A DNA stretch of 63,965 bases, the filler included, from Cladosporium halotolerans (Eukaryota), in the NCBI RefSeq assembly GCF_011745625.1. It is 4 parts of 4 records of this genome, joined end to end, with 100 filler letters (N's around TTAATTAATTAA, not from the genome) between each part and the next. Parts side by side here need not be neighbours in the genome. Positions count along the whole stretch, not along the records: positions 56,530 to 63,965 come from NW_027191629.1; 3 more parts are not named here. One strand, 5' to 3'. Position numbers and translations under genes: made by a program. Shown here piece by piece: positions 4,301 to 63,965 of the stretch; position 1 is the first letter of the stretch, and each line of letters starts with the position of its first letter. The notes below the pieces were generated by a model, which worked only from the letters and a program-made list of their open reading frames with translations, ran no database searches and was not told the DNA's origin.

Positions 4301-4381
4301 TGGCACAGCCTACTCACGATAAATCTAGAAGCTATGGACAGTACATTCCGGAAGCTGTATAGCACAGTACAGACTGCACCA

Positions 4382-16205: not shown

Positions 16206-16289
16206 GGCAACGTTACATGCGCTGCAGTACCGGAACGTTCGATCGTCCGACTTGCAGAAGTGTAAGTCTTGACCACCGTGAGTAGTGAC

Positions 16290-19204: not shown

Positions 19205-19304
19205 NNNNNNNNNNNNNNNNNNNNNNNNNNNNNNNNNNNNNNNNNNNNTTAATTAATTAANNNNNNNNNNNNNNNNNNNNNNNNNNNNNNNNNNNNNNNN
19301 NNNN
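19205..19304. other. artificial contig-joining spacer (N44-TTAATTAATTAA-N44)
   Basis: Exactly 100 bp; the core gives stop codons in all six frames; identical to the other two gaps. Confidence 0.97.
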
Positions 19305-30900: not shown

Positions 30901-31816
30901 TTTCACTAACAACCGTACCGTTCTAATTACTTTGAGAGCTCCCGCCAAACGGACCAGACAATGGATCATCGGTGGGATTTTGAAACATGTAAGATTCCTG
31001 GAAGGGTTCGCCATGCGTGTAGTGTTTGCGTGGGCCCCTGTAAGCTCGATTTTCGAGCTCGGGCAAAAGGCAAAACAGCTTGCGCAGCGGTCCACAAATG
31101 AGGGACGAGTGGCCAAAGACGGACCGAGACTGACCAAGAGTACACTGATTAAGAACATGGTGCAGAAGGCACAACAGCGCGTGGCGCGTGAGTCTTCGCA
31201 CGCACCGACGACGTTCGGGGAACTCGTGCGCATAATCGACGCGGCGTGGCCTGGCAGCAACACGCGGCGCGTGTACGACAAGCTCAGGAAGAGACAGGCG
31301 AGTGTCCTCGCGCAGCTTCGTACAGGCATGGCGCCACTGAATGGGTACTTGCACAACATCAAAGCAGTGGAAACGAATCTCTGTGAATGTGGCGAGGCAG
31401 TCGAGTCGAGAGAGCACTTCATCTTTCGTTGTGCTGGGTGGAGCGAGCAGCGGGAGATCTTGGGCGTATGGGCGGGCGAAGACGACCTCTCCCGCCTGCT
31501 TGGAGGCAAGTCCCTCACGGATCCCGGCGATTGGAGCCCGGACAAGGATGCAGTGCGAGCTGTGATCCATTTCACCCTGGCTACCAAACGATTCGAACGA
31601 GACACCAGTACGCGAAGGTGGATGAAGAGGGAGAGAGTGAATGACGACGACGACTGGGAAGCCCGCACCCTACTAACCACTAACACTACTCCACCCCAAG
31701 CACCCTCGTGCACACGGCAGGTGCCCGCTTCATCTGCTGAGGATAGGACGATGAACACTTGGAAACACATCTTCAAGAACACCCGCCGACCAGCAACCAC
31801 GAGCCTTCGAAAGTGA
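27991..31816 (+). pseudogene. LINE ORF2 (APE endonuclease, reverse transcriptase, RNase H-like, zinc finger)
   Basis: GDFNRHDQLWGG, TTIDL, GSDHRAI; WRPISLLSTLGK, FDVKGAY, GLPQGSPLSP, FVDD; QLRTG...CECGEAVESREHFIFRC. Stops at 28036, 28732 and 29293; frameshift near 29700. Confidence 0.9.
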
Positions 31817-33691: not shown

Positions 33692-36600
33692 CAGACTGGT
33701 GCACAATCAAGCGCTGCTTGATGCTTGATCAAGCGCTTGGTCAAGCAGTCAGTCAATCAAGCACCGTGTAGCCAGTCAATCAATCAAGCAGGACTTTATC
33801 AAGCGCTTGACACACTTGAGTGCTTGATTATTCAGGAAATCCTAGGTGCAGAATGCTAAATTCCTTAACCCAAACCCTAACCCCGGCCGCATCGAAAAGG
33901 ATGAACTCCAGATTCCGGATCTCTGGACCCCTGTATCCCCACAAATCACTAGTCTATGGAATACCCCGCGTTAGAACTACTCAAACGGGTACTGCCTACG
34001 CGTTTCGCGTGCAATTCGTGAGGAGATGGAGGAGCTGGCCTTGCATTGGTAGTCGCGAGCGCGCCGGCGATGGCTGAGTTGCAGCGCGCAGTACCTTTGG
34101 ACTATGGCTTTTATCTTGAATTGCTCAGCGAGCATCCTGCTTCTGATCACACTACGCAATGGCGACACAGTCCATCTTCGCCCCGCAATCGCCGCACACC
34201 TTCTCATCAAACCCTTCCAGCGGAATCGCCATGTCCGCTGAACAGCGCACAATCGACGACTTCGAAAGCACCGAGCAGCAGCGTCCTGCGCAGCCAGGTC
34301 CGATTGACTTGCCAGGTTACGAGGGTCTTGTGTGGCGTAACGTTACGAGACAGAGGTTTCGGATCCCTGAAAACGATCGCCCGCGACTGGATTCCTGGGT
34401 GTGGAAGCAGAAGCATGGTTGGAGGGTGTGGGATAGTATCGGTGAAGAGTACTGGCTTTGCAAGACATGCCACTGCCGCCGCAGCTCGAACAAGCACTGG
34501 TTCAAGTCCTTCAAATCAACAACGCGAGCTGGCGATCACATGAAAGCAGAGCATCGGGTCAGTGCCGAGGGGGACATTCCGCAGTCGCCGGAGCACCACA
34601 AGAAGAGGAAGCTCGATCAATACCTCAAGGGCTACGATGCTGCCACTGCTGTGGAAAACTCGGCTCTTGCAGGGTTCAATCTGCTCGAGTTCCGAGCACT
34701 GCTCTTGCAGTGGATCATAGCTGACAACATTGCTTTCAGAAAGGTGGAATCTCCTCATCTGCGACGACTCATAAGCTACGCCAACCCGCGGACTCAGATG
34801 CCGTCGCACACTTCGATATCAAGGTGGGTCGCCAAAGCTTATGAACAACAGCTCGGGGTTGTTACGGAGACGCTGGCTTCGGCTATAACGAAGGTGTCGC
34901 TATCTTTCGACCTGTGGACATCCGGCACTAGTGTTGCGCTGCTTGGTGTTGTAGCTCACTTCATTGATGCTGACGGCAAGCCGACGAGCATACTGCGGAG
35001 TTTACCGAGGCAACAGGGCAGGCACACAGGCACTAACATAGCGGACAATGTTGCTTGTATCATCGCGGAGTACGGCTTGGATCGCTCTCTTGGCTTCTTC
35101 ATCACCGACAACGCTAGCCAACAATGCAACCTGTATATTGACGCTCGCGGAGGAGTTTCAGTTCAGTGCCAGAGCTAGATGGATTCGCTGCTCTGGCCAT
35201 ATCCTCAACCTCGTCGCTCAATCGATCCTCTTCGGCGGAGACGCAGACGCACTGGAACTTGAGCTCCTCGATACTCAAGACGAAGAGTTGCGGCACATGG
35301 ATGTCTGGCGGCGTAAAGGGCCTTGCGGCAAGCTGCATAATGTTGTCAAGTATATCAAGAGGTCACCACAACGCATTGAACAATTCGAAGATATCCAGCG
35401 TCGCCTGATCTCTCCAACACGGCCGGCTGGCAAAGCTGAGGTGTACAAACTGGTGGAAGACAATGACACGAGATGGAACTCGATGGAAGACTGTATTGAG
35501 AGAGCGATTTATCTGCAATCGGCTCTTGATGAGTTTGTCGAGAAGGAAATAGACCATTGGCATGTGGCACGCCGGCGTCGGCAGAAAGCACTGCGACCCT
35601 CGATCGTTGACGACCGTCTTAGCACTGACGACTGGGAGGTCCTCAAGGCTTACCATGAGATCCTAAAACCAATAAAGAAGTCTACAAACATCCTCCAAGG
35701 GCAGATAGGTGGCCGCTTTGGAGCCATCTGGCAAGTCTTGCCTCAATTTGAGGCCTTGCTAACCCATCTTGAGGAGCAACGTCAGCGTTATTTGCCTTTA
35801 CAGAGCCAACGCTTGGCTCCAAGTCCGCCACAGCCTTCGCAGCTGCATGCCAATCTTCATGATTGTAACGAAACTCAACAAGGGCATACGCAGCAAAGCG
35901 ATAAGGCCAGGATTGACGAACCACGAGACGTCGCACGCGGGTGTGTCGACTATATCGCAGCTGAACAGCATTTCAGCATGACCATTAACGCTGGCTGGCA
36001 GAAGCTCGACGAGTACTACAAGCGCCTTGATGACAACGTGGTGTATGTCGCCGCGGTGGTTCTGCATCCGCGGATGAAGTGGCGTTACTTCAAGACCAAG
36101 TGGAGTGATCGGGAGGACTGGTTGAGCACATGGAAGGCGGAGCTGGATAAATACTGGCGTCACAACTATGAAAACAAGGCAGCCTCGTCATCGGCGACCT
36201 CAGCTGGGGTCGACAGCGATTCAGGAGTGAAGAGCGTCAAAGATGCTGCAGACGAGTGGTCTGACGGCGAGGACTCAGGCCTTGATCAGCTCGAGCAGTA
36301 CCTCAGCGAGCAGCCAGATCGCTCGTATAGTTCGGCAGACTCGCCAATTAGGTACTGGTTAGCAAGACGGAAGATTTGGCCGCAGTTGGCTGCAATGGCG
36401 CTTGACATATACGCTGTGCCCGCCATGGCTGATGAGCCAGAGCGCCTCTTCAGTCAGGCAGGCGCCGCTATCTCATCGCGACGACGACGTCTGAGCGACG
36501 ATACGGTTGCGTCCCTTATGTGTCTAAAGAGTTGGCAGAGTTCAGGCATCATTACGATAGACAAAAGTCTCTTTGAGCGTGCCATAGAAGCTGTTGTGGT

Positions 36601-36766
36601 AGCGGAATGATAAATGCTCGGGCCCATTACATAAGCACTCAAGCGTAATCAAGCAATCAATCAAGCGCTTGACTCTTGTCAAGCTCAAGCAATCAAGCAC
36701 ACTAAGCCGATCAATCAATCAAGCACAGCCTCTGCGCTTGAGCTTGATTGATTGTGCACCAGTCTG
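33692..36766 (+). mobile_element. complete hAT DNA transposon (Restless/Tfo1-like)
   Basis: Perfect 19-bp TIR CAGACTGGTGCACAATCAA (33692-33710 and 36748-36766); 8-bp TSD TATCCAAG (33684-33691 and 36767-36774); subterminal TCAAGC arrays. Confidence 0.97.
34159..36610 (+). pseudogene. hAT transposase with a single +1 frameshift near 35119
   Basis: BED-like WLCKTC...H...H; SFDLWTS, ITDNAS, RCSGHILNL, DNDTRWNS, VLHPRMK, AVPAMADEPERLFS. ORFs 34159-35178 and 35048-36610 join if one extra C is removed (possible sequencing error). Confidence 0.88.
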
Positions 36767-37877: not shown

Positions 37878-37977
37878 NNNNNNNNNNNNNNNNNNNNNNN
37901 NNNNNNNNNNNNNNNNNNNNNTTAATTAATTAANNNNNNNNNNNNNNNNNNNNNNNNNNNNNNNNNNNNNNNNNNNN
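37878..37977. other. artificial contig-joining spacer
   Basis: N44-TTAATTAATTAA-N44. Confidence 0.97.
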
Positions 37978-44482: not shown

Positions 44483-45829
44483 ATGAGTGCCAGCAGCAAC
44501 GTGGTAGGATTGCACTACCGGGTGGGCAAAAAGATCGGCGAGGGCAGCTTCGGCGCAATCTTCGAGGGCACAAACTTATTCAATAATACGCCAGTCTCCA
44601 TGAAGTTCGAGCCGCGCAAGAGCAATGCCACACAACTTCGTGACGAGTACCGTTCCTACAAGATCCTCGCGGGGAGCCGTGAGTACCTTACTGATCAAAT
44701 CACGTGACCCGTGGCGAGCTAACATGAAGTGAACGTTATGCAGCCGGTCTACCGAACTTATACTACTTCGGCCAGGAAGGCCTGCACAATGTGTTGGTCA
44801 TTGACCTGCTTGGCCCCAGCCTAGAAGAGCTCTTTGACCGTTGCGACCGCCGCTTCTCTATTAAGACCGTCGTCATGGTCGCCAAGCAGATGCTGTCGCG
44901 TGTTCAGACCATTCACGAGAAGAATCTGATCTACCGCGACATCAAGCCTGACAACTTCGTCATCGGCCGCCCCGACACGAAGTCGCAGAACGCTATCCAC
45001 GTTGTTGACTTTGGTATGGCGAAGCACTACCGTGATCCCAAGTCGAAACAGCATTTTCCTTACCGAGAGCGGAAGTCGTTGAGCGGAACGGCGCGTTACA
45101 TGAGTGTCAACACTCATTTCGGCCAAGAGCAGTCGCGACGAGATGATCTGGAGGCGCTAGGCCACGTGTTCATGTACTTTCTACGAGGTGGTCTGCCCTG
45201 GCAAGGCTTGAAGGCGGCGAATAACAAGCAGAAATACTAAAGCATTGGCGAGAAGAAGCAGACGACCGCTATTAAGGATATATGCGATGCCTTCTCAGAA
45301 GAGTTTAGCCAGTACCTATGGTACGTACGGGTCCTAGGCTTTGAAGACACGCCTGATTACGACTACTTGCGTGGCCTCTTGACGAAAAGCCTTCAAACCA
45401 GAAGACGGCGAGTACGACTGGACGAAACACAACAGCGGCAAACGCTTGGACATACCGCAATGCGCATCGCAATCACAATTGCACCATAAGGGCGTCAACC
45501 CTTCCGCAGGAGACCTCAAAGCAGGCGCCGGCGCCGGCCAACGAGCATCACGCGCATCCATTGCCCAAGACCGATTCAACGCTATCCTACCCAGACTAGT
45601 GGCTACCCGAGCAAGCGATTCCAGACTATCTCGGGAGCAACCTGGAACAAGCCACAACAGGGCGGACTTGGTCAAGCGCAGGAGTAACGGCACGCAACTC
45701 GAAGCGTCCGCGAACAGCATTACCGTGCCGCATCCCTCCATTTCAAACCTCGCTGGAGGGCTGAGCCAACCGCAATTTCCGAGTCAACGGCAGGACTCGG
45801 GTGATGTCGCGCGGCAGCAACGACAAGTA

Positions 45830-48300: not shown

Positions 48301-49382
48301 GCCTCTTGTAGATCTGCTAGATCTGGGGTGGCGCTGAGCGTTCTGGCAGTTTGAATAAGGCCATTTACAGTCAGTCGATCTTTTCACATCCAGTCTCTGC
48401 ACGATCTGTTCTGTGGCATATTGAGGTCGAATGCGTATGCGATAACGCAATGGCGCTTTCAGAGAGGAGTTTCAAGACCTCTTCCCATCGTGTATTGAGA
48501 GCACCAGTACGGTGGTTGTGGTGTTGTGACGGCTCAGAATGCTTGAGGATCAAGCTTGCTCATATTGCAGTGACGGGTGGTTCCGATCCTTTGCCGAATT
48601 CGAAAACTTTGGGAGAAGCAGAGGGTAACTGCTTGCGCGCAGTCTTGGGAAGCGCCGTCGAGCCCGCGGACCACTTCGCCTAGAAAAAGCCAAGGAACTA
48701 GTTGTGGCGCCACCAGGAGAGATGCGTCATGAGCGTACCACTGCCTGCGCAGTCTATTCAGCCCATCTTCACCGCGCATGGGGTCGCTTGGCCGACGTGA
48801 TCGCTGTCGGCTCCAGCGCGGAGCCACCCACAACGCCTGCGTGCTTGATCATGTGGGGCGACGACAGGGTGTTGACATGACCCTGGGCAAGATGTCATTC
48901 GTTGTTCTAGCTTGTCGTCGGCGAGGGTTTCATCCCCGTGGAGGGGGCGGCGGCTTATGCCGAGCTCCCTTGAATTCAGATTTTAGCGTGTCTAGCGGCA
49001 TAGATCATCTTCCTCTGGGGCCTCATGTGAGCTCACTAACTGACGTTTGCCCGTTTCTGCTCCTCGCTCCGCTGCACCGCACTTGCTATTTCCCTTGATA
49101 AACTCAAGCATATTGTGGTCGTGTCGTGTATGCAATCTCCACCTAGGTCGCGATTATCCAGCACCACGAACGACACTCGGTTATTTTGTGGAGGTTGTTG
49201 AACGGCGCAACGCCAAACCGGTTGAGCAGAATCTAGCCGGTCTTGAGGATATGCTTGCTGCGCGTAGCCGTCCACCTTTTCTGCTATGTCCACTTCCTGA
49301 CCTGCACCCAGCTCTAGCAAGCTTCGCACACATACACACTTCACAGTAACCGTCGAACCAGGCGTGCGATCGCCTTAGCGCA

Positions 49383-50747
49383 ATGGAGACATACAACGGC
49401 CACGTCCGCACACCCGCGGACGCAATTATTCTTTTTGAGGCATGCCATATCGGCCTGCTTCCCCGTGTGCAGCGACGTCTGTCAGAAAGGGAGAGGCAGT
49501 TAATCAAGTCTGGCTCTGTCTTCGTCTGGGAGGAGAGCGAGGCCGGCATTCGTAGGTGGACAGACGGAAGGTCATGGAGTGCCAGCCGCGTGTCTGGCAG
49601 CTTCCTAACCTACCGCGAAATGGAGGGCAAGCGAGGTGTCAGCACCTTTGAGAATAGCGCTCCTTGCGAGTCGATGCAGAACGGTGCGGAACAGGAGTCG
49701 GACGGCGGTTTCGATGGCTACCGCTATAAGCCTGACGGTCTTGTGAAACAATCCTTTTCGATTACAACCAATGACGGCCGGCACATGCACCTCATCAGCT
49801 ATTACTCGCAACCCTCGCAAGCAGGACAGCGCCCGGTGCAACCCACAAACGACCCTCAACTCCATCACGTTTGGACAGAGAAGGGCATATACTCGGGATC
49901 GACTATCCACGGGCAGAGCACCGTCCCTGCCGTCATTGGCGGCCCTATGGGCTGGCCTGGCTACATTCATGCTGCACACCAGCGTTCCATTTACGGTTGT
50001 TCTTCGTACGACTACGCGCCTCCACACCCGAGTGCCTGGTCTCCTCCTGGCCCCATGCGCAAGCCACCTCCTCACCCTCACTATGGCCCGTATTATCACC
50101 ACCCGGCCTTTGGACACCCAATGCAACATCCACCCCAACCTGCCAAAGGACTTAACTCTTGCGAGAGGCCACAACCTCACGCCATATGCTCTGTTCTTCC
50201 TCTACCTCCTCACTACGACCGTGGTCCGCCGTCGCCGCCACCAGTCGGCGGTTTGCTACGAGACTACCCTTCGCGATACCACGGTCGCGGCTCCTACCAA
50301 TCTCCGCCCATTAGCACTCCAAGTTTCCCTTCGGCCTCCACGGCCGCTCCTCCGCCCTCTTTGACCGCCCGCCCTGCACCTCCTCCGGTCAAGAGGCTTG
50401 AGCGTAAGGAGGACGACCGCCACGACTCGACAGAAACCCAGCTTAAATCGCAGGCCCGGCCAACGCCGGAAACGACCTCGCAGCACTCCACCGCTGCCAC
50501 GGCCTCAACTCCTTCCACCACCAACTCTACCGCCTCCAGTGCCCGCGCTGGACAGAACATCCCCAGCATCAACCTCATGCTCAAAGCGGGTGTTAACGGC
50601 CAGCCAACCGTTCGCTCCAGCAGCTGCAGCCCGAGCGGCTCCGGGCGCATGGCATCCGACATTCCCATGCACAAACTCGGCTTCGAGGCGGACAGAGATA
50701 TGCAGGCGCTCCGCAATCTCGACAAGTCGACATTCAAGGCATACTAA
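49383..50747 (+). CDS. pac2: Gti1/Pac2 (WOPR) family transcription regulator, Pac2 subfamily
   Basis: METYNGHVRTPADAIILFEAC.IGLLPRVQRRLSE, SGSVFVW, RRWTDG.SWSASRVSGSFLTYREMEGKR, YRYKPDGL.KQSFSI...HLISYY; Pro-rich tail ending DMQALRNLDK; intact 454 aa. Confidence 0.92.
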   Translation: METYNGHVRTPADAIILFEACHIGLLPRVQRRLSERERQLIKSGSVFVWEESEAGIRRWTDGRSWSASRVSGSFLTYREMEGKRGVSTFENSAPCESMQNGAEQESDGGFDGYRYKPDGLVKQSFSITTNDGRHMHLISYYSQPSQAGQRPVQPTNDPQLHHVWTEKGIYSGSTIHGQSTVPAVIGGPMGWPGYIHAAHQRSIYGCSSYDYAPPHPSAWSPPGPMRKPPPHPHYGPYYHHPAFGHPMQHPPQPAKGLNSCERPQPHAICSVLPLPPHYDRGPPSPPPVGGLLRDYPSRYHGRGSYQSPPISTPSFPSASTAAPPPSLTARPAPPPVKRLERKEDDRHDSTETQLKSQARPTPETTSQHSTAATASTPSTTNSTASSARAGQNIPSINLMLKAGVNGQPTVRSSSCSPSGSGRMASDIPMHKLGFEADRDMQALRNLDKSTFKAY

Positions 50748-51743: not shown

Positions 51744-54481
51744 CAGGGTGTTCATCAAACAGACACAAACAAGCAGCTTGTTTGTTTCATCACGTAATCA
51801 AACAGACAAACAGTACTTCGGCTGTTACGTAAGCAAACTAAACAATATTCCTCTGTTTGTAACTTAGACTGTTTGTAGATTTTTGGTAGAGATCGCGGTT
51901 GACTTGGCACAGAATATCAGCACGCAGAAGTCGAGTCTTCTACCCTAATCCTAACCCTTCCCGGACGCATTCGATGTGGTGCCGCTGCCGGGTGTTGCTA
52001 GCGCTGACGCGCCACGTGCGACGCGCGATGCGCGACGCGGAGATGTCGCGCGGTCTGTCTATTTAGGCAGTCCGGCGGCTTACCACTACCGTCTGACGGA
52101 GCCGTTATCGTCATGGATATCTTCGCAATGTCAGCGGACCTAGAAGACTCAGCAGCTCCGCATACCGCTCTGTTGCCGAATGCCCGGCGGAACGAAGGTG
52201 GTCTACTCCTCGCCGGTGCGAGTTGCAGTGGCTATACACCTGCTCCGCCCTCCAAGAAGCCGCGGGGAAGCTGGATACGGAAACATGGGGAACTTCTGAT
52301 ACGAGACAGTGACCTGAGCCCAGTGTGGCTTTGTACACTATGTCATGGCGACTCTGTACATCACCCTGTCAAAGAATACATTCTGCCTGTCGTCTCTACA
52401 ACACTAGCGCAGCGTCATATGGAGCGACACGGGTTCGACCTTTAGGGTCGGCCTATCCATCGGGGGCAGAAACGTCGGGCTGGCCCTATGCTCGAGAACG
52501 TTGACCGTCAGCATACGGCCGATAATTTGACCTTCAACGACAGTGGCTGGATTGATGCTTTTGTACGCTGAACCGTGATGACCAACCAGTCCTTACGTCA
52601 AGCAAGCTCGCAATCACATTTGCGGTTACTGATGTTCCAAGACCCTCGCGTGGAGAGTTTGGTGCCAAGTAGCGACAACACAGTGCGAGAATGGATTATG
52701 CAAGCAGCGTCCGATGCCAAAAGTACGATCGAGAAGTCACTGAGGCGGGCAGCCAGCAGCATAACGATATTCTTCGACAATTGGACCGCCAACAACGGCC
52801 TTGACTTCCTCGGTGTGATCGCGCACTATCTAGACGCATATCTGCATCCGCGTGCGATACTTCTTGGTCTGCGAGATACCCGTGGATCGCATAGCGGTGA
52901 AAGTATCGCAGAGGAGATTTTACGTCTGATACATGACTACGATATCGGCGAGAGGGTGCAGTATTTCATGTCAGATAATGCATCTGCGAATGACCGAGCG
53001 ATCAAGGTCTTATGCGGGAGTCTGGACATTGATCCGGGATCTCATCACTTGCGCTGCGGGGCCCACATTATCAAAATCGTAGCTAAGGCGGTGCTCTACG
53101 GTATCGACGCTGAAGCGCTCGAGCCGGACGCGCATGAGGAATCCCTCTCAGACAGCCACGATATAGCAGCGTTCGAAGCGATTGTCCGCTCTGTCCCATC
53201 CGAAGAAGCGCTTCAGACATGGCGTCGCAAGGGCCCCGTCGGGAAACTTCATAACCTCGTCAAGCACATCCATAAAACACCCAAACGTCGACGTTTCTTT
53301 GGAATGAAGCAGAACGTCGATGCTCATTCTGACGATGGTCGGATCTATCGGGTGATCGTGAACGGTGGCATCAGATTATATAGCAGCTGCGACTTGATCG
53401 AGCGTGCCTTGGAGCTCCGCAATGCCATCGAGCTTTACCAAACCCATTTCCGATCGCTCGGGACTGCGATCGATTGCCCGCCTTGGATTGTCTGGACGCG
53501 GGTGACTGGTCGCAGCTGCAGCAATTGCTTCAAGTGCTGCTCCCCTTGAAGAGTGCCTCCTTACGCCTCCAGAAAGATATTGATACGAAGCACGCGCTGT
53601 GGGAGCAGCTTGCGACGTTTGACAGCTTACTCATTTAGTTCGAGCAGCTCAAGGAGAGGTGCCGATACGAGCCTAAAGCCACATGAAAATCACGCGTCAG
53701 CCTCGGTTGGAAGGAGCTCGATAAGTACTATAGTCTGTCAGATGAGACCTTCGGGTACGAATGGCAATATTCCTCCATCCCCACCTGAAGATGGCTTGGT
53801 TCGAAAGACATTGGGGATGCCGACCGGCGTGGATCGATGCTGCCAGAGATGCAATCGACAGAGCATGCGCGCTTGCAAAGGCGAGATGGCCACAAGATGC
53901 GCAGAAAGCTGTTTCACTGAATCCGGTAGAGCCGACAATAAAATCTGAGTCGAGGTTCGACGAGTATAATACACTGCCACAAGAAGTCGACTCGATGGAT
54001 GATTTACAGCTCTATAGGCGGGAAGAGCGGACATCGGGACTGTATTCGCCACAGCCGCTCGACTGGTGGCGTCAAAACCATACAAGGTTTCCTCTCTTAC
54101 GCCATCTGGCGTTCGAGTTCTTCGCGATACCAGCGAGTGCCTCAGCGAACGAAAGGACGTTCTCGATTGCTGGTAACTCGGCGGGCAACGATAGGCCACG
54201 GACGCTGTATGAGCTTGCGGAAGCGCAACAATTATTGCGTAGCTGGTATGACGAGGGTACAGCTTGAGGCGTTCGCGACGCCTGCTCACCATGAAGGGAC
54301 TATTCCTCCACCCACCACACCCTGCCTACATATGCCAAGATCGGAATGATGTCTTGGCAAATAACACAAACAGACAAATAAATCGAGGCCATTCCTCAAA
54401 CAAACAGACAAAACGCTCAGGCTTAGGTAATCAAACCAAACATTCTCTGAAATCTTGTTTGTTTGTTTGAAGAACACCCTG
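51744..54481 (+). mobile_element. hAT DNA transposon, degenerate, both ends present (CAAAC-type subterminal repeats)
   Basis: Left end CAGGGTGTTCATCAAACA; right end TGTTTGAAGAACACCCTG (1 mismatch); no matching 8-bp TSD. Confidence 0.9.
52113..54267 (+). pseudogene. hAT transposase pseudogene
   Basis: WLCTLCH...H...H, FDNWTA, MSDNASAND, RCGAHII, WRRKGPVGKLHN, FLHP, AIPASASANERTFS; several stops and frameshifts. Confidence 0.88.
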
Positions 54482-56429: not shown

Positions 56430-56529
56430 NNNNNNNNNNNNNNNNNNNNNNNNNNNNNNNNNNNNNNNNNNNNTTAATTAATTAANNNNNNNNNNNNNNN
56501 NNNNNNNNNNNNNNNNNNNNNNNNNNNNN
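56430..56529. other. artificial contig-joining spacer
   Basis: N44-TTAATTAATTAA-N44. Confidence 0.97.
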
Positions 56530-56857
56530 AATCGTCGCGATTAAGGTACTGTAGAATATACCACTCGCCAAGGAGGAATGCAACGGCCGGGATGAGGTGG
56601 GAATAGATGTTGACCGTCTCGTTGTGGAGTCTCCACCAACTGCGGAGCGAGGTGCGAACCGAGTGTGATATGGGTCGATAACCGTGAAGAACCCATTTAT
56701 TATTGTCGTCTTGAAACCATTGCGGCATCTCATCGAACGAGAGAAGCGCTACACTCCCTGCCTCTTCCGGCCCGGATCCGGAGGCTTCGTCCTCCATTGG
56801 TCGCCTTTTGCACGCCTCTGGCCCCTTGGGCGGAACTCGCAGACGAGCGGACGCCAT
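56530..56857 (-). CDS. PAQR/HlyIII (Izh, adiponectin-receptor-like) membrane protein, 3' part cut by the contig end
   Basis: LLSFDEMPQWFQDDN.WVLHGYRP...SWWRLHNETVNIYSHLIP. Confidence 0.85.
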
Positions 56858-57103
56858 TTACTGTCGCACCTAGTGACCTGTGATATCAGAAGGCCGGAAG
56901 TCGAAAGTGAGTAAGTGATGAGATCGAAGATACGCGCTGCCTCTTTGCTCCGTTGTTGTTTTGTGTCTTGCGCCAAGTTACCACGTGCGACTCTATAGAC
57001 GCGCAGCGGTCAAAGCGGAGCCCCCCGTCGACTAGAGTCCGAGGTGCCTGCTTCCTGCTCCTCTTCCGAATCCGCCTCCCTGCGAGTCCTCTTCACTGCC
57101 CAG

Positions 57104-58240
57104 TTAGCAATATTCAGAGCTTGGAGGCGACGTTGGGGCTTTAGATCTTCCGCGGACCGGTCGGTGGTTCTTGCGTCTGTAGAGCAGATCTCGCAGCTGC
57201 TGTCGTGCACTTGCTAGCTTCCCGGAAGACGAGTGTTTATCATAACCCAACATTTTAGCAGCGCTCGCGGTCTGTGGTGATTCGCCATCATTTGGGATCG
57301 AATTCATTCTTTCATGCGTGACATATTCCGCTAGAGCAGGCGGGTCTGGCAGTAGCAACGTGCATATCCTTGTACCAGGACGTGGATCGTGTCCCCCATG
57401 ACCTTTATTTTCACTTGAATCACACACTGGGTCACGGTTCGTATGCGGCAGATCGGTGCCTGAATGATCCCATGAAGCCTGATCAGAATTCACAGTTGAA
57501 GCTGCTTGCCTTGAGGGGCATGACAAGACTTCATCAGACGTATTCTGTTGATGCAGATGGGCGCAGAACCCACGAATATTCCCATCGCTGGCACTGTGCT
57601 GTTTGGTCGACTGAATGGCTGGAAGAGTTTTTGGTGAGGATCCTCCAAACTCCACTTTGCCATGATATTCAGTTTTTCCCGGGTCTGCCGGCTGAAGAAC
57701 TTCTACACTCTCGTCACTGTCGGTATGCATTTCCACGATGGCGCGCTGACGCTGCTTCCATTCTGCGACAAGAGAAGCATTCGCATAATGTTTCGGCTCC
57801 CACGTTTGCTCACATTCGGACTCGCCGGATACCGGTTCCCAAAGTATGTGATATTCTCTAGAATTTTCCTCAAGAATTGCCCTTGCTGGCCAGGTGTTGG
57901 GAAGCCGGCGCCTAGTCCACCCGTGTCCTTTTCTTCTCTTCCTGCATGTAGACACAACGCTCGGAGACGATGTGCGACCTGGCACGCCGGGAAGAATCAA
58001 ATTTTGCGCGTCTGCGCGCGCGTTGGGCCGAAGTGGTCTTTCGATGCCTGATTGCGTAGCCAAAGGGTCAAGGGCACAGTCAAGGCACGACCTGACGAGC
58101 TGCAGATTGAGCCTATGAATATTCGCTTTGCCTACAGCTTCCCTTGCCCAAGACTGCCCTCCTTCTACCTTCGGCAGGAATATGCTGGCTAGGGGATGCG
58201 TCTCCCAGGCATTCGGCGCGGTGAACGATGAAGTATGCAA
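57104..58240 (-). CDS. chromodomain-like protein (start uncertain)
   Basis: WPARAILEENSREYHILWEP...TWEPKHYANASLVAEWK at about 57750-57900 matches the chromo-fold consensus; the rest is low-complexity. Confidence 0.55.
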   Translation of the reverse strand: MHTSSFTAPNAWETHPLASIFLPKVEGGQSWAREAVGKANIHRLNLQLVRSCLDCALDPLATQSGIERPLRPNARADAQNLILPGVPGRTSSPSVVSTCRKRRKGHGWTRRRLPNTWPARAILEENSREYHILWEPVSGESECEQTWEPKHYANASLVAEWKQRQRAIVEMHTDSDESVEVLQPADPGKTEYHGKVEFGGSSPKTLPAIQSTKQHSASDGNIRGFCAHLHQQNTSDEVLSCPSRQAASTVNSDQASWDHSGTDLPHTNRDPVCDSSENKGHGGHDPRPGTRICTLLLPDPPALAEYVTHERMNSIPNDGESPQTASAAKMLGYDKHSSSGKLASARQQLRDLLYRRKNHRPVRGRSKAPTSPPSSEYC

Positions 58241-58707
58241 GCTTGTCAGGCTTGGTACTTCAGCGGCGACAGGACGCGGTGTCGCAGGCTACAACAAGAC
58301 AAATGCAACGACGACGTGCATCAAATCAGACCTCCGAGCCGGTCGACGAATATGACCATACAATTTGAAGGAAGGAAGAAATATTTTACATAACAATTTT
58401 CACAGAAGTCAACTGACAACTTCACGATAACGCTTGGACCATCCTGCTCCAGGAGCAACCAGGCCTGTGCTCAGCCGCTCCAGAGCTGGACTGCGGGACG
58501 CGCCGCGGCTGTCTAACCGCCCTTCCTATCGGCGATGCAATTAACCGAGATTACTGGCGCTTGTGCTGATGGCAGTCTAAGCCATCCACGTTAAGATCAC
58601 AGAAGTGCTTGCGAACGACTTGTGCCCCTCAAGTTCCTTCTCTTGTAGGAACTCAACAGCATCCAAGTCATCGCGTTGTCCAAACAATTGACCCATCGCA
58701 GGGCGTG

Positions 58708-59462
58708 ATGAACGACGTCAGCACCACCCGTAGTCCGCCTCTAGAGGCACTCATACTCGACAAGCAGTGTATAGCTCCCACGTCTGGCACCTCGTTAGGT
58801 GTTAGTGGAGTAATCCCCACGCTACAGTAAGCACTGCGCAAGCTTCCCACTAAAACCATGCGACCTGGTCAGCATACTGACACCACTGTGAAGAAATGTC
58901 GTTGCTACGGTAAACCTCGACTGTCGCCTCGACCTTAAGACCATCGCTTTGCACGCCCGTAATGCAGAATACAATCCCAAGGTGAGGGTGTTCTCATGGT
59001 AGTGTAGGCTCTTCCTGACTGTTCTCCAAGCGTTTCGCAGCCGCGGTTATGCGCATACGTGAGCCCAAGACGACTGCCCTCATCTTCGCATCTGGCAAGA
59101 TGGTCGTCACGGGCGCGAAGTCTGTAGATGATGTTAAGCTTGCGAGTCGCAAGTACACGCGTGTGCTTAAAAAGCTTGGCTTCAATACGAAGTTTACAGA
59201 GTTCAAGATACAAAACATCGTTGCTTCTTGCGACATCAAATTCCCGGTCCTGCTCGAGGGGCTGGCCACCGGCATCACATGTTCAGCTCCTACGAACCTG
59301 AGCTCTTCTCGGGTCTGATATATCGCATGATGATTGCCAAAAGTCGTTTTGTTGATCTTCGTTTCTGGAAAACTTGTCTTGACCGGGGCCAAGGTACGGG
59401 AAGAACTGTACCAGGCCTTCGAGCTCATATACCCAGTGCTGTCTGACTTTCGCAAGACTTGA
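58708..59462 (+). pseudogene. tbp: TATA-binding protein (TBP/SPT15) copy, diverged, two frameshifts
   Basis: [68 protein letters not shown]...[14 protein letters not shown]...[20 protein letters not shown]; introns 58827-58893 and 58982-59030; -1 near 59270 and +1 near 59331. Confidence 0.9.
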
Positions 59463-60293
59463 GCTGTCTTGTCTTGTCGGATCCCACCCGTGAACGATGT
59501 TTCACCCTTCTTGCTGGGCATGCAGTCTTTCGAAGAACATGATGTGGACGATCCTTGTGATGTGAACGGGTTTGTGTCTTTATTGATCTCAATAGCAAGT
59601 AGCAGTCTCTTTTCGGCACCCGAATGCTGATTACTGCAATCTGTCACAAGCAACTGATTTCGGGTCTCATCTGTGCCGTCCCGTGCACAAAGCATTTTAC
59701 GTTAGAGACGATTTGCTTCTCATCATACAGATTGTCACTCTGTTCAGAGTTGGAGACGGTCATACCGCCGCTATTGCGATCTTACAGCACGAGGCGCGAG
59801 ACCAGCCTTGGGCAGAATACCGAGGGCCCTGCGCGTACCATGGCTACCGATGAACACCTCCGCGGGAAAGTGAAGATCCTTGAAAGTTCGTCGACTTTCA
59901 TGGTCCGCCCAATCCTGTGAGAAGAAATTGCGGAGGACGCCGTGCACGTGGTACAGATAGTTGGAATCTGGCCTTAAGCAGGACTAAATGCTTGAGTGTC
60001 TGTGCAGGCGCGGTCTTCACAAAGGTACGGTAAGGTAACCCTTTGCTTTTTCATCATTCAGTTTCCCCGCTCTTCTTTCATCATTAACTTGCAGACCTTT
60101 CTGCCGTATACGGAAATTGCCAGGGAAGCTACACGCATCGTGCAAGCGTTGGCGAAACCAGGCGATAGACCCATATTGACGATGAGTAACAACATCCGGT
60201 CGGAAATTTGGCAATTCATCTGCTAGATGGCCATCCAAAGACAGCAAAGCTAATCCACAGAATTTGCTGTAACTGTGGTTGACCTTTTCGTTT

Positions 60294-62528
60294 TCAGACG
60301 CCCAAACGCGGTCGCGGTCGTCTTACATGGGCGCTGCCAACCGTGGCGCCCTTTCTTTTGAGCATTGTGGTCTGCTTGTTGATCAACTCGGATTTGTGAA
60401 AGTCAATGATAAGGACGCGCTTCAACTCCGTATTCCACAAGACGTTTTCGCGCCTCAAATCACCGTGACGGACCCCCAGCCGGTATATCCTGTGAGCTGA
60501 CTTCATCGCGGCTTTCCTGGTACTAGAAGTCTCTTGCCACTGTGACTGTGTGAGCGGCTCTCCGCCCCAGCCCATCAAAAGCATATGTCGAATGTCGCCG
60601 GCCCCATGGAGATGATATGTCTGTGCCATGTCAATGGATCCAAGGAAAACAGGAACAGCAGAACCTTGCACGCCGCGGAGGATCTCGTAGAAACCCGCTT
60701 CGCGAGAAACCCTACTCCATAGCTCTGCGGTGGTCCCTTTCCCGACAACGGTATACCCGTACAAGGAACAACGAAGTTTAAAAGGGGCACCTGCCCGTCC
60801 GCACACTCCAAAAGGCTCACAGGAGTCCACGTCTTCATCAAGCTGCCTCTGGAGGGCGCAAACCATTTCCGCGAGAGTTATTTCGTGCCTCTCCGTCTCT
60901 TCGCCCCTGCGGTGGTCTGAGACATTCGGACATCTGAAATCCAGTGCGGCCCCATCTCGAAGGCCGAGCAAACATCGTTGAGTGCAGTAACGTGATGACA
61001 TGCGTCGCGTATGGCCGCCTCCGCCTGGCTGTGATGTCGTACGACGTTGCGCTGAAGGCTGTGGAGGCGACGAAGCGACTTGGCTGTGGTTACGCTTCCG
61101 GTGATGTGCGGTGGCGTTTGAGTCTGATTCTGATGAGGTCGACGCTTCGTCTGGGGCCGTTGAATCACCCGGTGAAGGCGTACATACGGGGTGTGACCGC
61201 GTGCTGCGTCGCCGTATTGCTCCATCAGGTGATCCAATGGGTGATGAAGGCACGTATTCCGAGCCTGGTGGAGTCTGATTTAGTTGCTCTTCCGGTATTT
61301 GCGATCGTGCATGCTCAAAGTCTGTCGCCCAGACGCGTATTGTTTTCTTTGCCTCGTTCCTCCACGCGTTGCTTCGAAGTGATGTCGCGCAGCACATAAG
61401 AGTGAAGCACAACAGCCGAGCAACAGCGGTGAGAGGGTAGTGATGGCTTTCATCGCCTGCAGACGGCACGTCTTTGTTCGGCACGCAAAGATGGTAGTAG
61501 AGCCTACTTGGCTCATCCTCCGGCACGTAAAGGAACACCAGCGCTATTCCTGTCGATATGTAGGAATACGCTAGGCCTTCTTGTATCATGACATGGTATT
61601 CTTGGACCAGTGCCGCGCCAGTCAGCCGCATTGCGTTGTACGTCAGCTTTTCTGCTGTTTCTGTGGGAACAGTCTCTGAATTGACGACTTCATCCCAGAA
61701 ATCCATCGGTCGCAGGCCCGCGCAGAGATTTTCTACAGATAATTTGTGTGGCGGCTTGTACTCGACTGTCATCAAGAGAGTGCTCCTGGAATCGTCCAAG
61801 CGATTGACGCAAAATTGGTCGGGTTGCATCCTGCCTGAATTTACGTCGGTCTCGCGAGCTTCGGCCGCCTCATCGTCAAGCGCGTTCGCATGGTTGTCGA
61901 AACGCAGGCCATGGCCAAGTCGAAGCTCTCTGCATGCTGCCGGGATCGAGCAAAGGGCAGACACAACATCCTGGACATGGCGATCCTTACCGGATTGTTC
62001 GATGAATTCGAGATCTTTTTCGCTACTGATGGGATTCCTGCGAAGCGAACGTCCGAGATCGTCCAACGCAATGACAGGCGAGAACAAGCGTGGCGCGTCC
62101 GCTCCAGCCGGTTGCAAGTAGCGAAGGACGATCTCGTACATTTCGGCTTGCTGCACGGCGAAGTCACCCCAGTGCTCGAGTCTGCTTGGGCAGTATTTTC
62201 CATGAGGAGTTGGAATACTGCCTTTCGTTGAACGAGACGCCCTCGCAACTGTCAAAGGCATTGATAAATGCGTATGGCAAGCTTCGAGGTACTCAGCAAG
62301 CGTCGTGTTCCGTATGCGCTGTTCTGCCTGACGCTGTTGCTCTTCTGCCTGACGCTGTTGCTCTTCTGCCTGACGCTGTTGCTCTTCTGCCTGACGCTGT
62401 TGCTCTTCTGCCTGACGCTGTTGCACTTCTGCCTGACGCTGTTGCTCTTCTGCACGTCTTTGCCCCTCCAGGGCCCTTGCAAGTTGTTCGCGCAAGTCGC
62501 CGTAGTCCGATACATTGTTGTTGGCCAT
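60294..62528 (-). CDS. Spok-family (Podospora spore-killer-like) protein: coiled coil, PD-(D/E)xK nuclease, Cys cluster, kinase-like domain; about 744 aa, intronless
   Basis: (EEQQRQA)n; TTLAEYLEACH; QPDQFCV...VEYKPPHKL; VQEYHVMIQEGLAYSYISTG; YCTQRCLLGL...LD..CPNV..H; GAPFKL...YGYTVVGKGT; QGSAVPVFLG; HMLLMGWGG; HGDLRRENVLWN...IIDF. Confidence 0.85.
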   Translation of the reverse strand: MANNNVSDYGDLREQLARALEGQRRAEEQQRQAEVQQRQAEEQQRQAEEQQRQAEEQQRQAEEQQRQAEQRIRNTTLAEYLEACHTHLSMPLTVARASRSTKGSIPTPHGKYCPSRLEHWGDFAVQQAEMYEIVLRYLQPAGADAPRLFSPVIALDDLGRSLRRNPISSEKDLEFIEQSGKDRHVQDVVSALCSIPAACRELRLGHGLRFDNHANALDDEAAEARETDVNSGRMQPDQFCVNRLDDSRSTLLMTVEYKPPHKLSVENLCAGLRPMDFWDEVVNSETVPTETAEKLTYNAMRLTGAALVQEYHVMIQEGLAYSYISTGIALVFLYVPEDEPSRLYYHLCVPNKDVPSAGDESHHYPLTAVARLLCFTLMCCATSLRSNAWRNEAKKTIRVWATDFEHARSQIPEEQLNQTPPGSEYVPSSPIGSPDGAIRRRSTRSHPVCTPSPGDSTAPDEASTSSESDSNATAHHRKRNHSQVASSPPQPSAQRRTTSQPGGGGHTRRMSSRYCTQRCLLGLRDGAALDFRCPNVSDHRRGEETERHEITLAEMVCALQRQLDEDVDSCEPFGVCGRAGAPFKLRCSLYGYTVVGKGTTAELWSRVSREAGFYEILRGVQGSAVPVFLGSIDMAQTYHLHGAGDIRHMLLMGWGGEPLTQSQWQETSSTRKAAMKSAHRIYRLGVRHGDLRRENVLWNTELKRVLIIDFHKSELINKQTTMLKRKGATVGSAHVRRPRPRLGV
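62322..62453 (-). repeat. 21-bp tandem repeat, about 6.3 copies, encoding the Spok heptad coiled coil
   Basis: Unit TTCTGCCTGACGCTGTTGCTC on the + strand; one copy has a single substitution. Confidence 0.95.
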
Positions 62529-63651
62529 TATGTTCGATTCTTTAGGAGAACCAGCGGTAGGACGGTTCGGTCGAGTCAAACCACTGGCCGAAGTGGCACA
62601 GGAAACAAGTTGGTTGTCGAACACCGTTTGATGGGTGAGAACAGGCCCAAAGAGCGGTACCTGCCATATTGACTACTGTTTGATACCAAGTCTTTAGGCT
62701 GCAGCCTTAACTTACTAACGCGTCGTGATGGCCCCTCTTTCAGCCGGGCCGGGCCGTTTCCCCGCACGCGGTCGGCACGTGTGCACATGCACCAAGCAAT
62801 CCTGACTTCTTTCATTTTAGGGTCATGAGGACCATATCGCACTCTCAAGGTTCGCACTTCCCAGCCACCAGACCACGCGTTGCTTGCACAAAGTAGCTCA
62901 GAGGCAGGTCTAGCGATACGCTGCGGCCTTCCGCTCCATCTCCTAGCTTCTGCATCTGCTCCTTGTTCTAACATCCATGCAGCACTGGGAAATGCAGTCG
63001 TCGCTTGTTGGCCCTCTGATGCGATGCAATGGCCCCTGAAACAGGCTTCATCGACCCGCGGGTCGCCTTTAATCGGGAAGCGCGCCAGAGCCGACATTGC
63101 TCCATCCAAGGCGCGACCTTGACACAACATCTTGCTTCCTCCAATGCACCACGACCGTGCACCCATGAAGTCAACCGCACTGTAGCAATGTTCGCTCAGC
63201 GCACATTTACGACGCACGCGTGCCTGTTACCCAAAACCTATATTCCGAAGCCTGATCGTTCAGCCCACCGCTCGATGGGCTCTTTTCCCGCCCAACCTAC
63301 AGCGGTCCCTTTCTCTGAAAAGGGGCATACATCTAGGCCTCGAACCAGCCACGGCAAGACTCTCGAGCAACAATGCACTGCCACCACAACTCCTTCGCTG
63401 ATGGTACGCCTTGCTATTCGTCACGGAAAGGCTCACGTCAAGGTCGACCGGGTTGCACACAAAGCTTGGAAGAGAAGGCTCGTCGCGAGATTGGGCGTCG
63501 GCGGTTACAACAACAATGTGGCTTGAGGCACGACTTGGCCCCTTTGCAGCCTCTATGGTTGCTAGGGTAGGTCGACAGATTATGAGAGCGCCGATAAAAG
63601 CGCGGGCTGCAAATTCTCCACCAGACTTCCTGGTTCACGTCTTGTCATGTC

Positions 63652-63965
63652 CAGGGTGTTCATCAGACAGACAGACAAGATTTTCGGGAATGTCTGGTCT
63701 GCTTACCTAAGGAGCGGTGGCTTGTCTGTCTGTCTGAGGAATGGCAATGATTTGTCTGTCTGTCTGCATCACCTGCCAAGACATTCATCAGTCTTGGCAC
63801 GAACGACAGGCACTGTCGTACACACGAGAGAATGTGCTCATATGGTACAGTACCAAAGTGTCTATATACTTCAGATTATGTCCTCGTCGTACCAGCTGCG
63901 CAGAAGTTGCTGCGCCTCCGCGAGCTTGTACAGAGTCCGTGGCCTATCATTCCCGACCGAGTTTC
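63652..63965 (-). mobile_element. 3' end of a hAT element (CAGAC-type) including the transposase C-terminus; continues beyond the window
   Basis: TIR CAGGGTGTTCATCAGACAGAC at 63652; minus-strand NSVGNDRPRTLYKLAEAQQLLRSWYDEDII* (stop 63871-63873) is nearly identical to the C-terminus at 54175-54267. Confidence 0.88.

Follow-up and report, generated by a model that had tools for sequence, protein, structure and literature searches.

An uninterrupted minus-strand ORF at 60294..62528 of the window (the whole 63,965-nucleotide stretch of Cladosporium halotolerans DNA that was analysed, filler included) encodes a protein, P0001, and the best overall explanation for it is an intact, constrained, single-exon Spok gene whose product, by analogy with studied relatives, would on balance be a toxin-antidote protein. 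P0001 is a new Spok member in a capnodialean Dothideomycete.

The Spok-family CDS is a single exon of 744 codons plus a stop codon, and its translation, begun at the first ATG (62528), runs for 744 residues up to that stop. When started at an upstream GTG, the same ORF is listed as 60294..62624 (−), and from stop to stop the frame occupies 60294..62672 (−); it is open throughout and does not require an intron. The initial methionine of P0001 matches the first Met of all aligned homologues in two alignments (16/16 and 50/50), and the chance of 744 stop-free codons is about 1e-13 to 1e-16 by hand arithmetic. The ORF listing, the translation and the alignment of M1 with homologues thus establish as real the intact 744-residue ORF of the preliminary description. 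The promoter and 5′ UTR are presumed to lie within 62529..63651 (−), a region that extends from the start codon to the boundary of the repeat at 63651/63652, and the ORFs lying there match no protein family. The GC3 value of the Spok ORF is 0.554, as against 0.661 in the window's MAPKKK gene, and this low value is compatible with weak expression or with a foreign origin.

Judged from its sequence, P0001 almost certainly belongs to the Spok family. It has 450 homologues at E ≤ 0.001, the best with 91% identity (P0002) and the next with 66%. The family PF27653.1, named SPOK2_N in the protein atlas, is present on 120/120 of the homologues listed (the best 120 of 450; identity 47–91%, query cover 74–100%), and P0001 is assigned to PF27653 via these listed homologues. 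SPOK2_N is also found on 95–99% of the members of the three nearest atlas clusters (feature scores 0.97–0.99). The homologues, the atlas clusters and the conserved motifs described below together bear out the earlier naming of this gene as a Spok. The family comprises 2560 representative clusters, and the reading frame is uninterrupted at 57 of 64 related metagenome loci, so that intact Spok homologues are very common; Spok-type genes are a large, common fungal family, a few members of which are selfish killer and antidote genes. In the tree, P0001 lies in a Dothideomycete clade that is sister to a Eurotiomycete-rich clade, and the Acidomyces copy clusters with Penicillium and Paecilomyces copies. 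The only Fusarium relative among the matches listed, P0108, is 47% identical to P0001 and belongs to a different clade. Podospora proteins did not appear among the matches listed in two homologue searches (120 + 120, seeded with P0001 and with the Fusarium protein P0108), nor among ten representatives picked by motif positions; lichen-fungus proteins were among those found.

Each part of the four-part Spok architecture claimed at the outset (coiled coil, here a helical repeat; PD...VEYK; Cys/His cluster; and HGD...DF) was found, and the order of the parts is shared with Podospora SPOK1–4 (Spok1 of P. comata; Spok2, Spok3 and Spok4 of P. anserina), as described in PMC6660238. The shared elements are the repeat or coiled coil, domain 1, PD-(D/E)XK, the Cys/His cluster and the kinase-like domain, in which a catalytic Asp and DF are present, all carried on a single ORF whose coding part lacks an intron. 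The N-terminal charged helical repeat region (residues 11–73; 62310..62498, −) contains 6.5 tandem copies of a 21-bp unit (62318–62453) that encodes polar heptads of the QAEEQQR type (residues 25–73), and it varies in length across the 16 aligned homologues of alignment A1; a variable N-terminal repeat or coiled coil is likewise described for the Podospora Spoks (PMC6660238). The conserved domain 1 (residues ~76–205; 61914..62303, −), whose borders were read by eye from the alignment, has invariant positions that include H85, F149, E177 and D187 in 50 sequences, and is 94% identical between P0001 and P0002.

The putative PD-(D/E)XK nuclease domain (residues ~206–410; 61299..61913, −) is placed by motif conservation and by the assignment in PMC6660238. 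Its motif reads PD237QFC...TVE256YK258PPHKLS, with the D237 codon at 61818–61820 and the K258 codon at 61755–61757 (−), and the spacing of 21 residues from D237 to K258 is that of SPOK3 219–240 (PMC6660238). Among 107 aligned representatives, which are those retained by length from 151 rows, D237 is conserved in 96, E256 in 102 and K258 in 102 sequences; the nuclease triad is complete in 94/107, the kinase triad in 103/107 and both in 92/107, and P0001 has both. The nuclease is the best-conserved domain in comparisons with four of five homologues (P0002, 99%; P0004, 75%; P0010, 72%; P0021, 61%), the kinase domain being ahead in the comparison with P0017 (71%, against 67% for the nuclease). Q309 is conserved in 105/107 representatives, and the Tyr of QxxxY is replaced in P0001 by Val313, position +4 being occupied by Tyr in 81/107 and by Val in 13/107. 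This Tyr, in a motif at 294–298 of SPOK3, is reported in PMC6660238 to be important for HsdR-type nuclease activity. Since Val is the consensus at this position in the alignment of the 50 closest homologues, it is not a recent lesion. Pfam nuclease families gave no match in any of 50 members, and a profile search of PDB with the whole protein returned kinases only. When Spok nuclease sub-alignments (43/50 rows, then 107) were compared by hhalign with E. coli K-12 HsdR, Mrr and McrC, the probability was below 1%, a result that is weak and uninformative with single sequences as templates.

Next in order lies a poorly conserved Ser/Pro-rich linker (residues ~411–510; 60999..61298, −) with indels in A1, and the published architecture has an unstructured region there (PMC6660238). 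The Cys/His cluster, C515-x3-C519-x13-C533-x5-H539-x8-H548 (60885..60986, −), has each of its residues conserved in 106/107 representatives. Its last spacer is x8 in 16/16 A1 sequences and x7 in 32 of 271 proteins collected, the published form being C-x3-C-x13-C-x5-H-x7-H (PMC6660238). The kinase-like domain (residues ~551–715; 60384..60878, −) carries K597, E610, H688-x-D690, N695 and D709-F-H, with the motif H688-G-D690-L-R-R-E-N695 ... D709-F-H and the D690 codon at 60459–60461; its catalytic residues are conserved in 104–106 of the 107 representatives (D690 in 104, N695 in 106, D709 in 105). A 50-sequence profile aligns to the catalytic loop and DFG region of Cdc7 kinase (HRD...N...DFG) with an E value of 9.3e-5, and the Pfam matches in these 50 members are APH (45), Pkinase (35) and Kdo (28).

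The Spok sequence is held under constraint. None of the 12 indels listed (12 of 28 rows; four runs) lies in the CDS, which makes up 30% of the stretch, and five of the eight in-CDS substitutions among those listed are synonymous; the CDS has fewer disruptive changes than its flanks. All 30 bins of the linked piece of 7.4 kb are covered in three DNA runs, and presence/absence polymorphism was not seen in them. Run X1 contains a second variant that is ~92% alike, at a depth of 31–48 versus 108–175, and its Logan contigs on the linked piece are many and short (93 at 99% or above, 45 at 95–99% and 27 at 90–95%). Contigs of the RNA library X19 cover 59717–62297 at ~94% (1627 nt), 98.4% (797 nt) and 100% (156 nt), a cover that does not by itself prove transcription. 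X19 has no cover on 56530–59257, where the DNA runs do, and this is a contig gap and no sign of a silent flank. Near-identical copies are found under several different organism labels, and environmental sequencing runs contain them as well. The runs with a sharing of 0.16–0.40 come from air, dust, urban, soil, sediment and marine samples (X5 and X19 among them), and no habitat is read from them.

The window is made of four unlinked contigs joined by N44-TTAATTAATTAA-N44 spacers at 19205–19304, 37878–37977 and 56430–56529, and the recording of the window's MAPKKK protein on an 18573-nt contig corroborates these joins. Only 56530–63965 is physically linked to the Spok ORF. This piece contains a TBP paralogue (58804..59459, plus strand) that lies tail to tail with the Spok gene (Pfam TBP, E 3e-25; PDB TBP, E 4e-45 over 79 residues). 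It has introns at 58828–58891 and 58982–59030 and frame changes at 59267/59268 and ~59333–59336; in runs X4 and X5, a +1 change after 59267 and a −1 change at 59334/59335 put its three pieces into one frame. At the other end, a hAT-like multi-copy transposon end (63652..63965, no strand assigned) is cut by the end of the window and is marked by a jump in depth and by loose ends. The depth in X1 rises up to 863–1175 over 63474–63965, and loose ends lie at 63651/63652 in runs X1, X4 and X5. The hAT-like end is 70% identical to 54481–54175, which adjoins a hAT dimerisation ORF, and it is the only transposon sequence on the linked piece. The preliminary description had set the intact Spok gene against broken TBP and transposon neighbours; this stands for the TBP paralogue, which is linked and has two frame changes, but not for the reverse-transcriptase and hAT ORFs that it probably meant (29657–31816, 34147–36610 and 52572–54267), which lie on other contigs, as does the PKS. 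A 394-residue ORF at 57104–58288 matches nothing in Pfam, the atlas or PDB, and a chromodomain-like motif suspected in it was not confirmed. In 56530–63965, scans for Rfam families and tRNAs were negative, and no RIP-like dinucleotide bias was seen across the window. The DUF3435 recombinase was not found in ORFs of at least 200 aa in the window or in ORFs of at least 90 aa in 43.2–64 kb. With the contigs unlinked and no DUF3435 seen in the linked 7.4 kb, the earlier placing of the gene in accessory DNA or a Starship is not supported.

Related loci were also sought in metagenomes. A scan with the single protein as query gave zero confirmed relatives, and one with alignment A1 gave 80 loci. None of these 80 has the TBP paralogue, the 394-residue ORF or the flanking DNA of the Spok piece, and none of the 82 large flank ORFs around them matches DUF3435, although introns could hide it. 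Genes of NLR-like NACHT/WD40/TPR type adjoin several homologues, and transposon fragments adjoin the closest metagenome relative, as they do at P0001.

By analogy with Podospora SPOK1–4 and Fusarium FuSpok1/2, P0001 would combine two activities in one protein. The toxin would be the PD-(D/E)XK nuclease domain (D237/E256/K258), which would damage DNA, and the antidote would be the C-terminal kinase-like domain (D690, D709), which would neutralise the damage wherever production of the protein continues. The N-terminal repeat helix may pair the protein, and cells or spores that inherited the protein without the gene would be harmed. This assignment of the toxin to the nuclease and of the antidote to the kinase, taken from the literature, is the most likely one: SPOK3 loses killing upon K240A and becomes toxic upon D667A (PMC6660238), and SPOK1 D680A causes DNA damage both in E. 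coli and in yeast (PMC9972908). The catalytic Lys of VEYK and the catalytic Asp of HGD, singled out for checking beforehand, are both in place by motif context, and K258 probably corresponds to SPOK3 K240, and D690 to SPOK3 D667, by motif context only. That P0001 is active as a toxin-antidote is plausible, and we hold it tentatively; that it is a meiotic driver in the source species appears unlikely. Drive would not be visible if the gene were fixed in the population, and the gene is covered in 3/3 DNA runs.

Compared by description, P0001 differs from SPOK1–4 in several respects. It belongs to a Dothideomycete clade, whereas the Podospora relatives form the 'clade II' of PMC6660238 (Sordariomycetes and Polytolypa); its last Cys/His spacer is x8 and not x7, it has Val in place of the QxxxY Tyr, and the Enterprise/Starship context is not seen on its linked 7.4 kb. 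FuSpok1 and FuSpok2 of Fusarium poae and the Fol4287 spok of a Fusarium oxysporum Starship are, like P0001, Spok homologues from outside Podospora with conserved catalytic residues, and they work vegetatively, or have been proposed to do so, as toxin-antidotes that retain dispensable DNA (PMC12693581; preprint 10.64898/2026.10.04.756499). These Fusarium genes have been assayed in yeast or in the fungus and lie on accessory chromosomes or on a Starship with a Captain gene, whereas P0001 is known from sequence. A wider parallel exists with restriction enzymes, as the SPOK3 nuclease domain resembles HsdR of type I enzymes by HHpred (PMC6660238), and selfish restriction-modification systems have been compared with Spoks as addiction modules (PMC9972908). 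Restriction-modification relies on a separate methylase, whereas P0001 would carry its putative antidote, the kinase-like domain, within the same polypeptide. The wtf genes of Schizosaccharomyces pombe are single-gene spore killers as well, one locus supplying both poison and antidote; they form an unrelated protein family, with two transcripts per gene, and are not known to have a nuclease or kinase domain.

An intact Spok that does not kill is a serious though rather unlikely alternative. Its toxin may have lost strength, or it may be only a resistance or suppressor allele against other Spok copies, with no killing or drive of its own. Such inert relatives were seen in a published yeast screen, where, of six intact Fusarium homologues whose catalytic residues are conserved, two (FuSpok1/2) were toxic and four gave no effect (PMC12693581). 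NECHADRAFT_82228 was without resistance in Podospora (PMC4022471), and InterPro IPR052396 bears the name 'meiotic drive suppressor kinase', as quoted in PMC12693581. The Val at QxxxY fits this alternative too, as does the second variant in X1, since more than one copy or haplotype may interact. However, the D/E/K triad of P0001 is intact, the Val is the consensus of the closest homologues, and the top conservation of the nuclease region against four of five homologues (99% in P0002) would not be expected if the kinase alone were important. A gene that died recently and kept its frame open by luck is extremely improbable: the adjoining TBP paralogue is frameshifted, but here 744 codons are open, all catalytic residues are retained, no CDS indels are listed in four runs and the listed variants show a synonymous excess.

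The remaining alternatives concern the setting and role of the gene. An addiction module carried by a giant Starship or accessory chromosome, killing cells that lose the element, has been published for Fusarium oxysporum (preprint 10.64898/2026.10.04.756499) and proposed in PMC12693581, so the addiction module suggested in the preliminary description was no new idea, and the accessory-DNA setting on which it drew is not supported, the contigs being unlinked. The decaying TBP duplicate and transposon end on the linked piece, together with the short Logan contigs and several variants of X1, which are as expected in a repeated or variable region, speak for such a module; the lack of a DUF3435 match in the window ORFs and the metagenome flanks (with the same reservation about introns), the location of the PKS, retroelement and hAT genes on other contigs and the complete cover of the piece in three DNA runs speak against it, and we consider it improbable. 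A related proposal, of similarly low probability, is that Spok and the decaying TBP duplicate belong to a multi-copy or variable mobile segment in a mainly clonal capnodialean mould, where the gene would not be a spore killer but would punish loss during vegetative (mitotic or parasexual) growth; if true, this would be the first working Spok in Dothideomycetes, and one without the QxxxY tyrosine. Still less probable is a host-domesticated nuclease-kinase with an ordinary, non-selfish cellular role, for example in DNA-damage signalling, defence or non-self recognition. The size and mostly intact state of the family and the NLR-like genes beside several homologues would suit such a role, and a native function with later co-option is named as an alternative in PMC12693581, whose authors nevertheless judge domestication unlikely. 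Against it stand the patchy distribution of the family and the conflict of its gene tree with the species tree (PMC4022471, PMC6660238), the grouping of the Acidomyces copy with Penicillium and Paecilomyces, and the transposon fragments beside both P0001 and its closest metagenome relative.

As it stands, the gene adds one more intact copy to a very common family, and the general ideas of a single-gene killer and of an addiction module for dispensable DNA have already been published for Podospora and Fusarium. In the literature searched, no functional test of a Dothideomycete Spok was found among the matches listed. If the intact Spok gene described here is active as a toxin-antidote, it would reveal whether killing can do without the QxxxY tyrosine, and it would extend the tested Spok toxin-antidotes from Sordariomycetes to Dothideomycetes, a class with many plant-associated and extremotolerant fungi.

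The frame under study lies on the minus strand, running from an upstream GTG in the ORF listing (60294..62624) within stop-to-stop limits of 60294..62672. Translation from the first ATG, at 62528, gives the 744 residues plus stop of protein P0001, and this methionine matches the homologue start in 16 of the 16 sequences of alignment A1 and in all 50 of a second alignment of the closest homologues. Homologue full length is reached without an intron, the 91% relative P0002 having a query cover of 100% and the closest metagenome relative 740 aligned positions. The uninterrupted 744-residue ORF of the preliminary description (60294-62528, minus strand) is borne out, P0001 translating through to its stop, and so is the four-part architecture, with repeat heptads, nuclease motif, Cys/His cluster and kinase motifs all visible. 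The QAEEQQR-type heptads at residues 25-73 correspond to a 21-bp tandem repeat of 6.5 copies (62318-62453, minus strand), while translation and A1 place the nuclease motif at PD237...E256-Y-K258, the cluster at C515-x3-C519-x13-C533-x5-H539-x8-H548 and the kinase motifs at H688-G-D690...N695 and D709-F-H.

In the available part of PMC6660238, the coiled coil of Podospora SPOK3 corresponds to a variable repeat, killing requires K240 of a PD-(D/E)XK motif at 219-240, a QxxxY motif stands at 294-298, the cluster reads C-x3-C-x13-C-x5-H-x7-H and resistance requires D667 of the kinase-like domain. The Asp-to-Lys distance is 21 residues in P0001, as in SPOK3; the last Cys/His spacer is 8 residues in 16/16 A1 sequences as against 7 in SPOK3. 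When P0001 was aligned with cluster representatives (107 of 151 rows retained by length), D237 was kept in 96 of the 107, E256 and K258 in 102 each, each of the five Cys/His residues in 106, K597 in 104, E610 in 106, D690 in 104, N695 in 106 and D709 in 105. The full nuclease triad occurs in 94/107 rows, the full kinase triad in 103/107 and the two together in 92/107, P0001 among them. Among 50 members, the models matched were APH (45/50), Pkinase (35/50) and Kdo (28/50). At the QxxxY site, Q309 is kept in 105/107 and the position four residues on is Val313 in P0001; the representatives carry Tyr here in 81 and Val in 13 of 107 cases, and Val is the consensus among the 50 closest homologues. 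Nuclease sub-alignments gave no hhalign match to E. coli HsdR, Mrr or McrC, a weak test with single-sequence templates, and the putative nuclease assignment is taken from the same portion of PMC6660238 (HHpred to HsdR) and from the strand-like motif context as read from the sequence.

P0001 is almost certainly a member of the Spok family. Homologues at E<=0.001 numbered 450 (8000 candidates scored), and PF27653.1 was present on 120/120 of the best 120 of these 450. PF27653 is SPOK2_N in the protein atlas, where the features of P0001 scored 0.99-0.97 to three clusters with PF27653 on 95-99% of their members. P0001 alone gave a sub-threshold Pkinase match only against Pfam, in a collection used without the PF27653 model. 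An exhaustive search matched 2560 cluster representatives at E<=0.001, a number that falls to 1650 at 1e-10 and to 724 at 1e-30. Among the matches listed, the top one is 91% identical to P0001 and the next group 60-66%; Hortaea werneckii proteins (62% and 54%) come next, ahead of numerous Eurotiomycete proteins at about 50%. Seeding a search with the sole listed Fusarium relative returned, among the matches listed, Eurotiomycete-type rows and a few Sordariomycetes. No Podospora SPOK sequence was found among the homologue rows listed, nor among ten representatives picked for SPOK3-like motif spacing, which included lichen-fungus proteins. The probable link to the Podospora SPOKs draws on the curated family name, the published architecture description and the motifs, in place of a pairwise alignment. 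The identification is correct and its object ordinary: one more intact, newly found member of a very large family that was already known.

The source is a capnodialean Dothideomycete. The Ssk2-type MAPKKK of the second contig (20588-24895, minus strand) is at most 78% identical to the rest of the protein collection, the named best matches being Cladosporium allicinum (77%), Cryoendolithus antarcticus (75%) and Neohortaea acidophila (74%). This MAPKKK has its own row in the collection, and a row for the Spok protein itself was not seen among the matches listed; the Spok gene may be uncalled or differently called there. A quick maximum-likelihood tree was built from 55 hand-picked proteins and rooted only at the midpoint; P0001 and its 91% relative belong there to a clade of 12 rows (SH-aLRT 100) that also contains three H. 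werneckii proteins and other sequences and is sister to a 26-row Eurotiomycete-rich clade. The copy from Acidomyces, also capnodialean, groups among those of Penicillium and Paecilomyces. Among the literature matches listed, no functional test of a Dothideomycete Spok was found.

The window joins end to end draft contigs of 19204, 18573, 18452 and no fewer than 7436 bases; in agreement, the protein collection gives the contig of the MAPKKK a length of exactly 18573 bases. Gene neighbourhoods across the spacers (each of 44 N, TTAATTAATTAA and 44 N; 19205-19304, 37878-37977 and 56430-56529) are not real. The Spok ORF is linked only to 56530-63965. Adjacency to it is not demonstrated for the polyketide synthase cluster, the reverse-transcriptase ORF, the hAT transposase ORFs, the MAPKKK or the Gti1/Pac2 gene, which are on other contigs. 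The first contig carries a secondary-metabolite cluster spanning 518-19248, with a LicD-family ORF (518-1381), a highly reducing polyketide synthase divided among three ORFs (5533-8517, 8797-11796 and 12139-12969), an FSH1 serine hydrolase (15423-16205) and an NRPS-like reductase (17173-19248). On the plus strand, the second contig has a reverse-transcriptase ORF (29657-31816) that matches RVT_1 weakly and a hAT transposase split across two overlapping frames (34147-36610), and the third a protein-kinase fragment (44728-45240), a Gti1/Pac2 (Wor1-like) regulator (49350-50747) and a second hAT-like element (52572-54267).

The statement that neighbouring TBP and transposable-element sequences are broken stands for the TBP copy, which is linked and frameshifted, and falls for the reverse-transcriptase and hAT transposase ORFs, which lie on other contigs. 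The TBP copy (58804-59459, plus strand; Pfam TBP E 3e-25) is downstream of the Spok ORF, tail to tail with it, and has two ordinary-looking introns and a 79-residue match to solved TBPs (E 4e-45). In this copy the reading frame shifts twice, at 59267/59268 and about 59333-59336, leaving the conserved SSYEPELF segment in the wrong frame. The DNA runs X4 and X5 have one added base after 59267 and one fewer at 59334/59335, bringing the three TBP pieces into one frame, a contig of X4 omits 58842-59345, and both forms of the second site occur in run X1; the TBP copy is thus broken here and variable elsewhere. Upstream of the Spok gene, 63652-63965 forms one end of a hAT-like transposon present in multiple copies, as judged from a depth rise in X1 at 63651/63652 (from about 200 to 863-1175) and from 70% identity to 54481-54175, which adjoins a hAT dimerisation ORF on another contig. 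Loose ends occur at 63651/63652 in three DNA runs, and some runs go on beyond 63651 with different sequence, so the insertion is absent from some copies. The Spok contig also holds a 394-codon open frame (57104-58288, minus strand) that matched nothing in Pfam, the protein atlas or PDB; 56530-63965 gave no RNA families or tRNAs, and the window as a whole shows no RIP-like dinucleotide bias.

The proposal that the gene travels on accessory DNA, such as a Starship element, is unlikely though conceivable and finds no support in the linked sequence. A family-alignment scan gave 80 metagenome loci, 64 of which cover at least 600 query residues; DUF3435, the Starship Captain recombinase, was seen in 0 of 82 large flank ORFs, and neither the TBP copy nor the window's flanking DNA in any of the 80. 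Their flanks are varied, with NLR-like NACHT/WD40/TPR genes, DDE transposases, metal-transporting ATPases and housekeeping genes, and a retroelement fragment adjoins the closest relative. Some of these homologues adjoin heavy-metal P-type ATPases, others NACHT/WD40 NLR-like genes or a SesB/PNP_UDP ORF (contigs L026:1-2640, L026:19617-21626, L040-L048 and L019:5183-6298). At 57 of the 64 loci the match is single, uninterrupted and free of stops, so an intact Spok copy is not very unusual.

Parts of 59900-63000 were found, at shares of 0.16-0.87, in at least 24 runs of 15 studies with several organism labels and air, dust, urban, soil, sediment and marine samples; of these, only X1, X4, X5 and the RNA run X19 were aligned to 56530-63965. 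Over this piece, X1 (31 Mb) contains a main variant, at least 99% alike and with contigs at depths of about 108-175, and a minor variant, about 92% alike at depths of 31-48; more than one copy, haplotype or strain is thus present, and the minor variant may correspond to P0002. Several signs point to constraint on the gene. The nuclease region has the highest domain identity against four of five homologues (P0002 99%, P0004 75%, P0010 72%, P0021 61%), and against P0017 the kinase region exceeds it (71% vs 67%). Over 56530-63965, 0 of 12 indels fell in the coding sequence (best 12 of 28 rows, four runs), which makes up 30% of the stretch, a chance by our own arithmetic of 0.7^12, about 0.014. 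Among the rows listed (486 further rows exist), 5 of 8 in-gene substitutions are synonymous, and the others are V696I, C557R and R96K. Contigs of the metatranscriptome X19 span 59717-62297 in three pieces, the longest (1627 nt) about 94% alike, the next (797 nt) 98.4% alike and the shortest (156 nt) identical; this coverage does not show transcription.

In the published model, as given in the available parts of PMC6660238, PMC9972908, PMC12693581 and the preprint 10.64898/2026.10.04.756499, a nuclease-domain toxin damages DNA, a kinase-domain antidote sits on the same chain, and the pair acts in spores and vegetative cells. P0001 has all that this model needs at the motif level except the QxxxY tyrosine. 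The sole base rate found, in the accessible portion of PMC12693581, is that 2 of 6 intact Fusarium homologues were toxic in yeast, an assay that weak toxins may escape according to its authors. We consider that P0001 could well have toxin-antidote activity, a prospect falling just short of even. Meiotic drive by the gene in Cladosporium halotolerans would be unlikely: no sexual cycle is known, and presence polymorphism, needed for drive to show, was not observed, the gene being present in 3/3 DNA runs compared. P0001 stands as an intact Spok member in a class that, by the literature matches listed, is without a functionally tested Spok.
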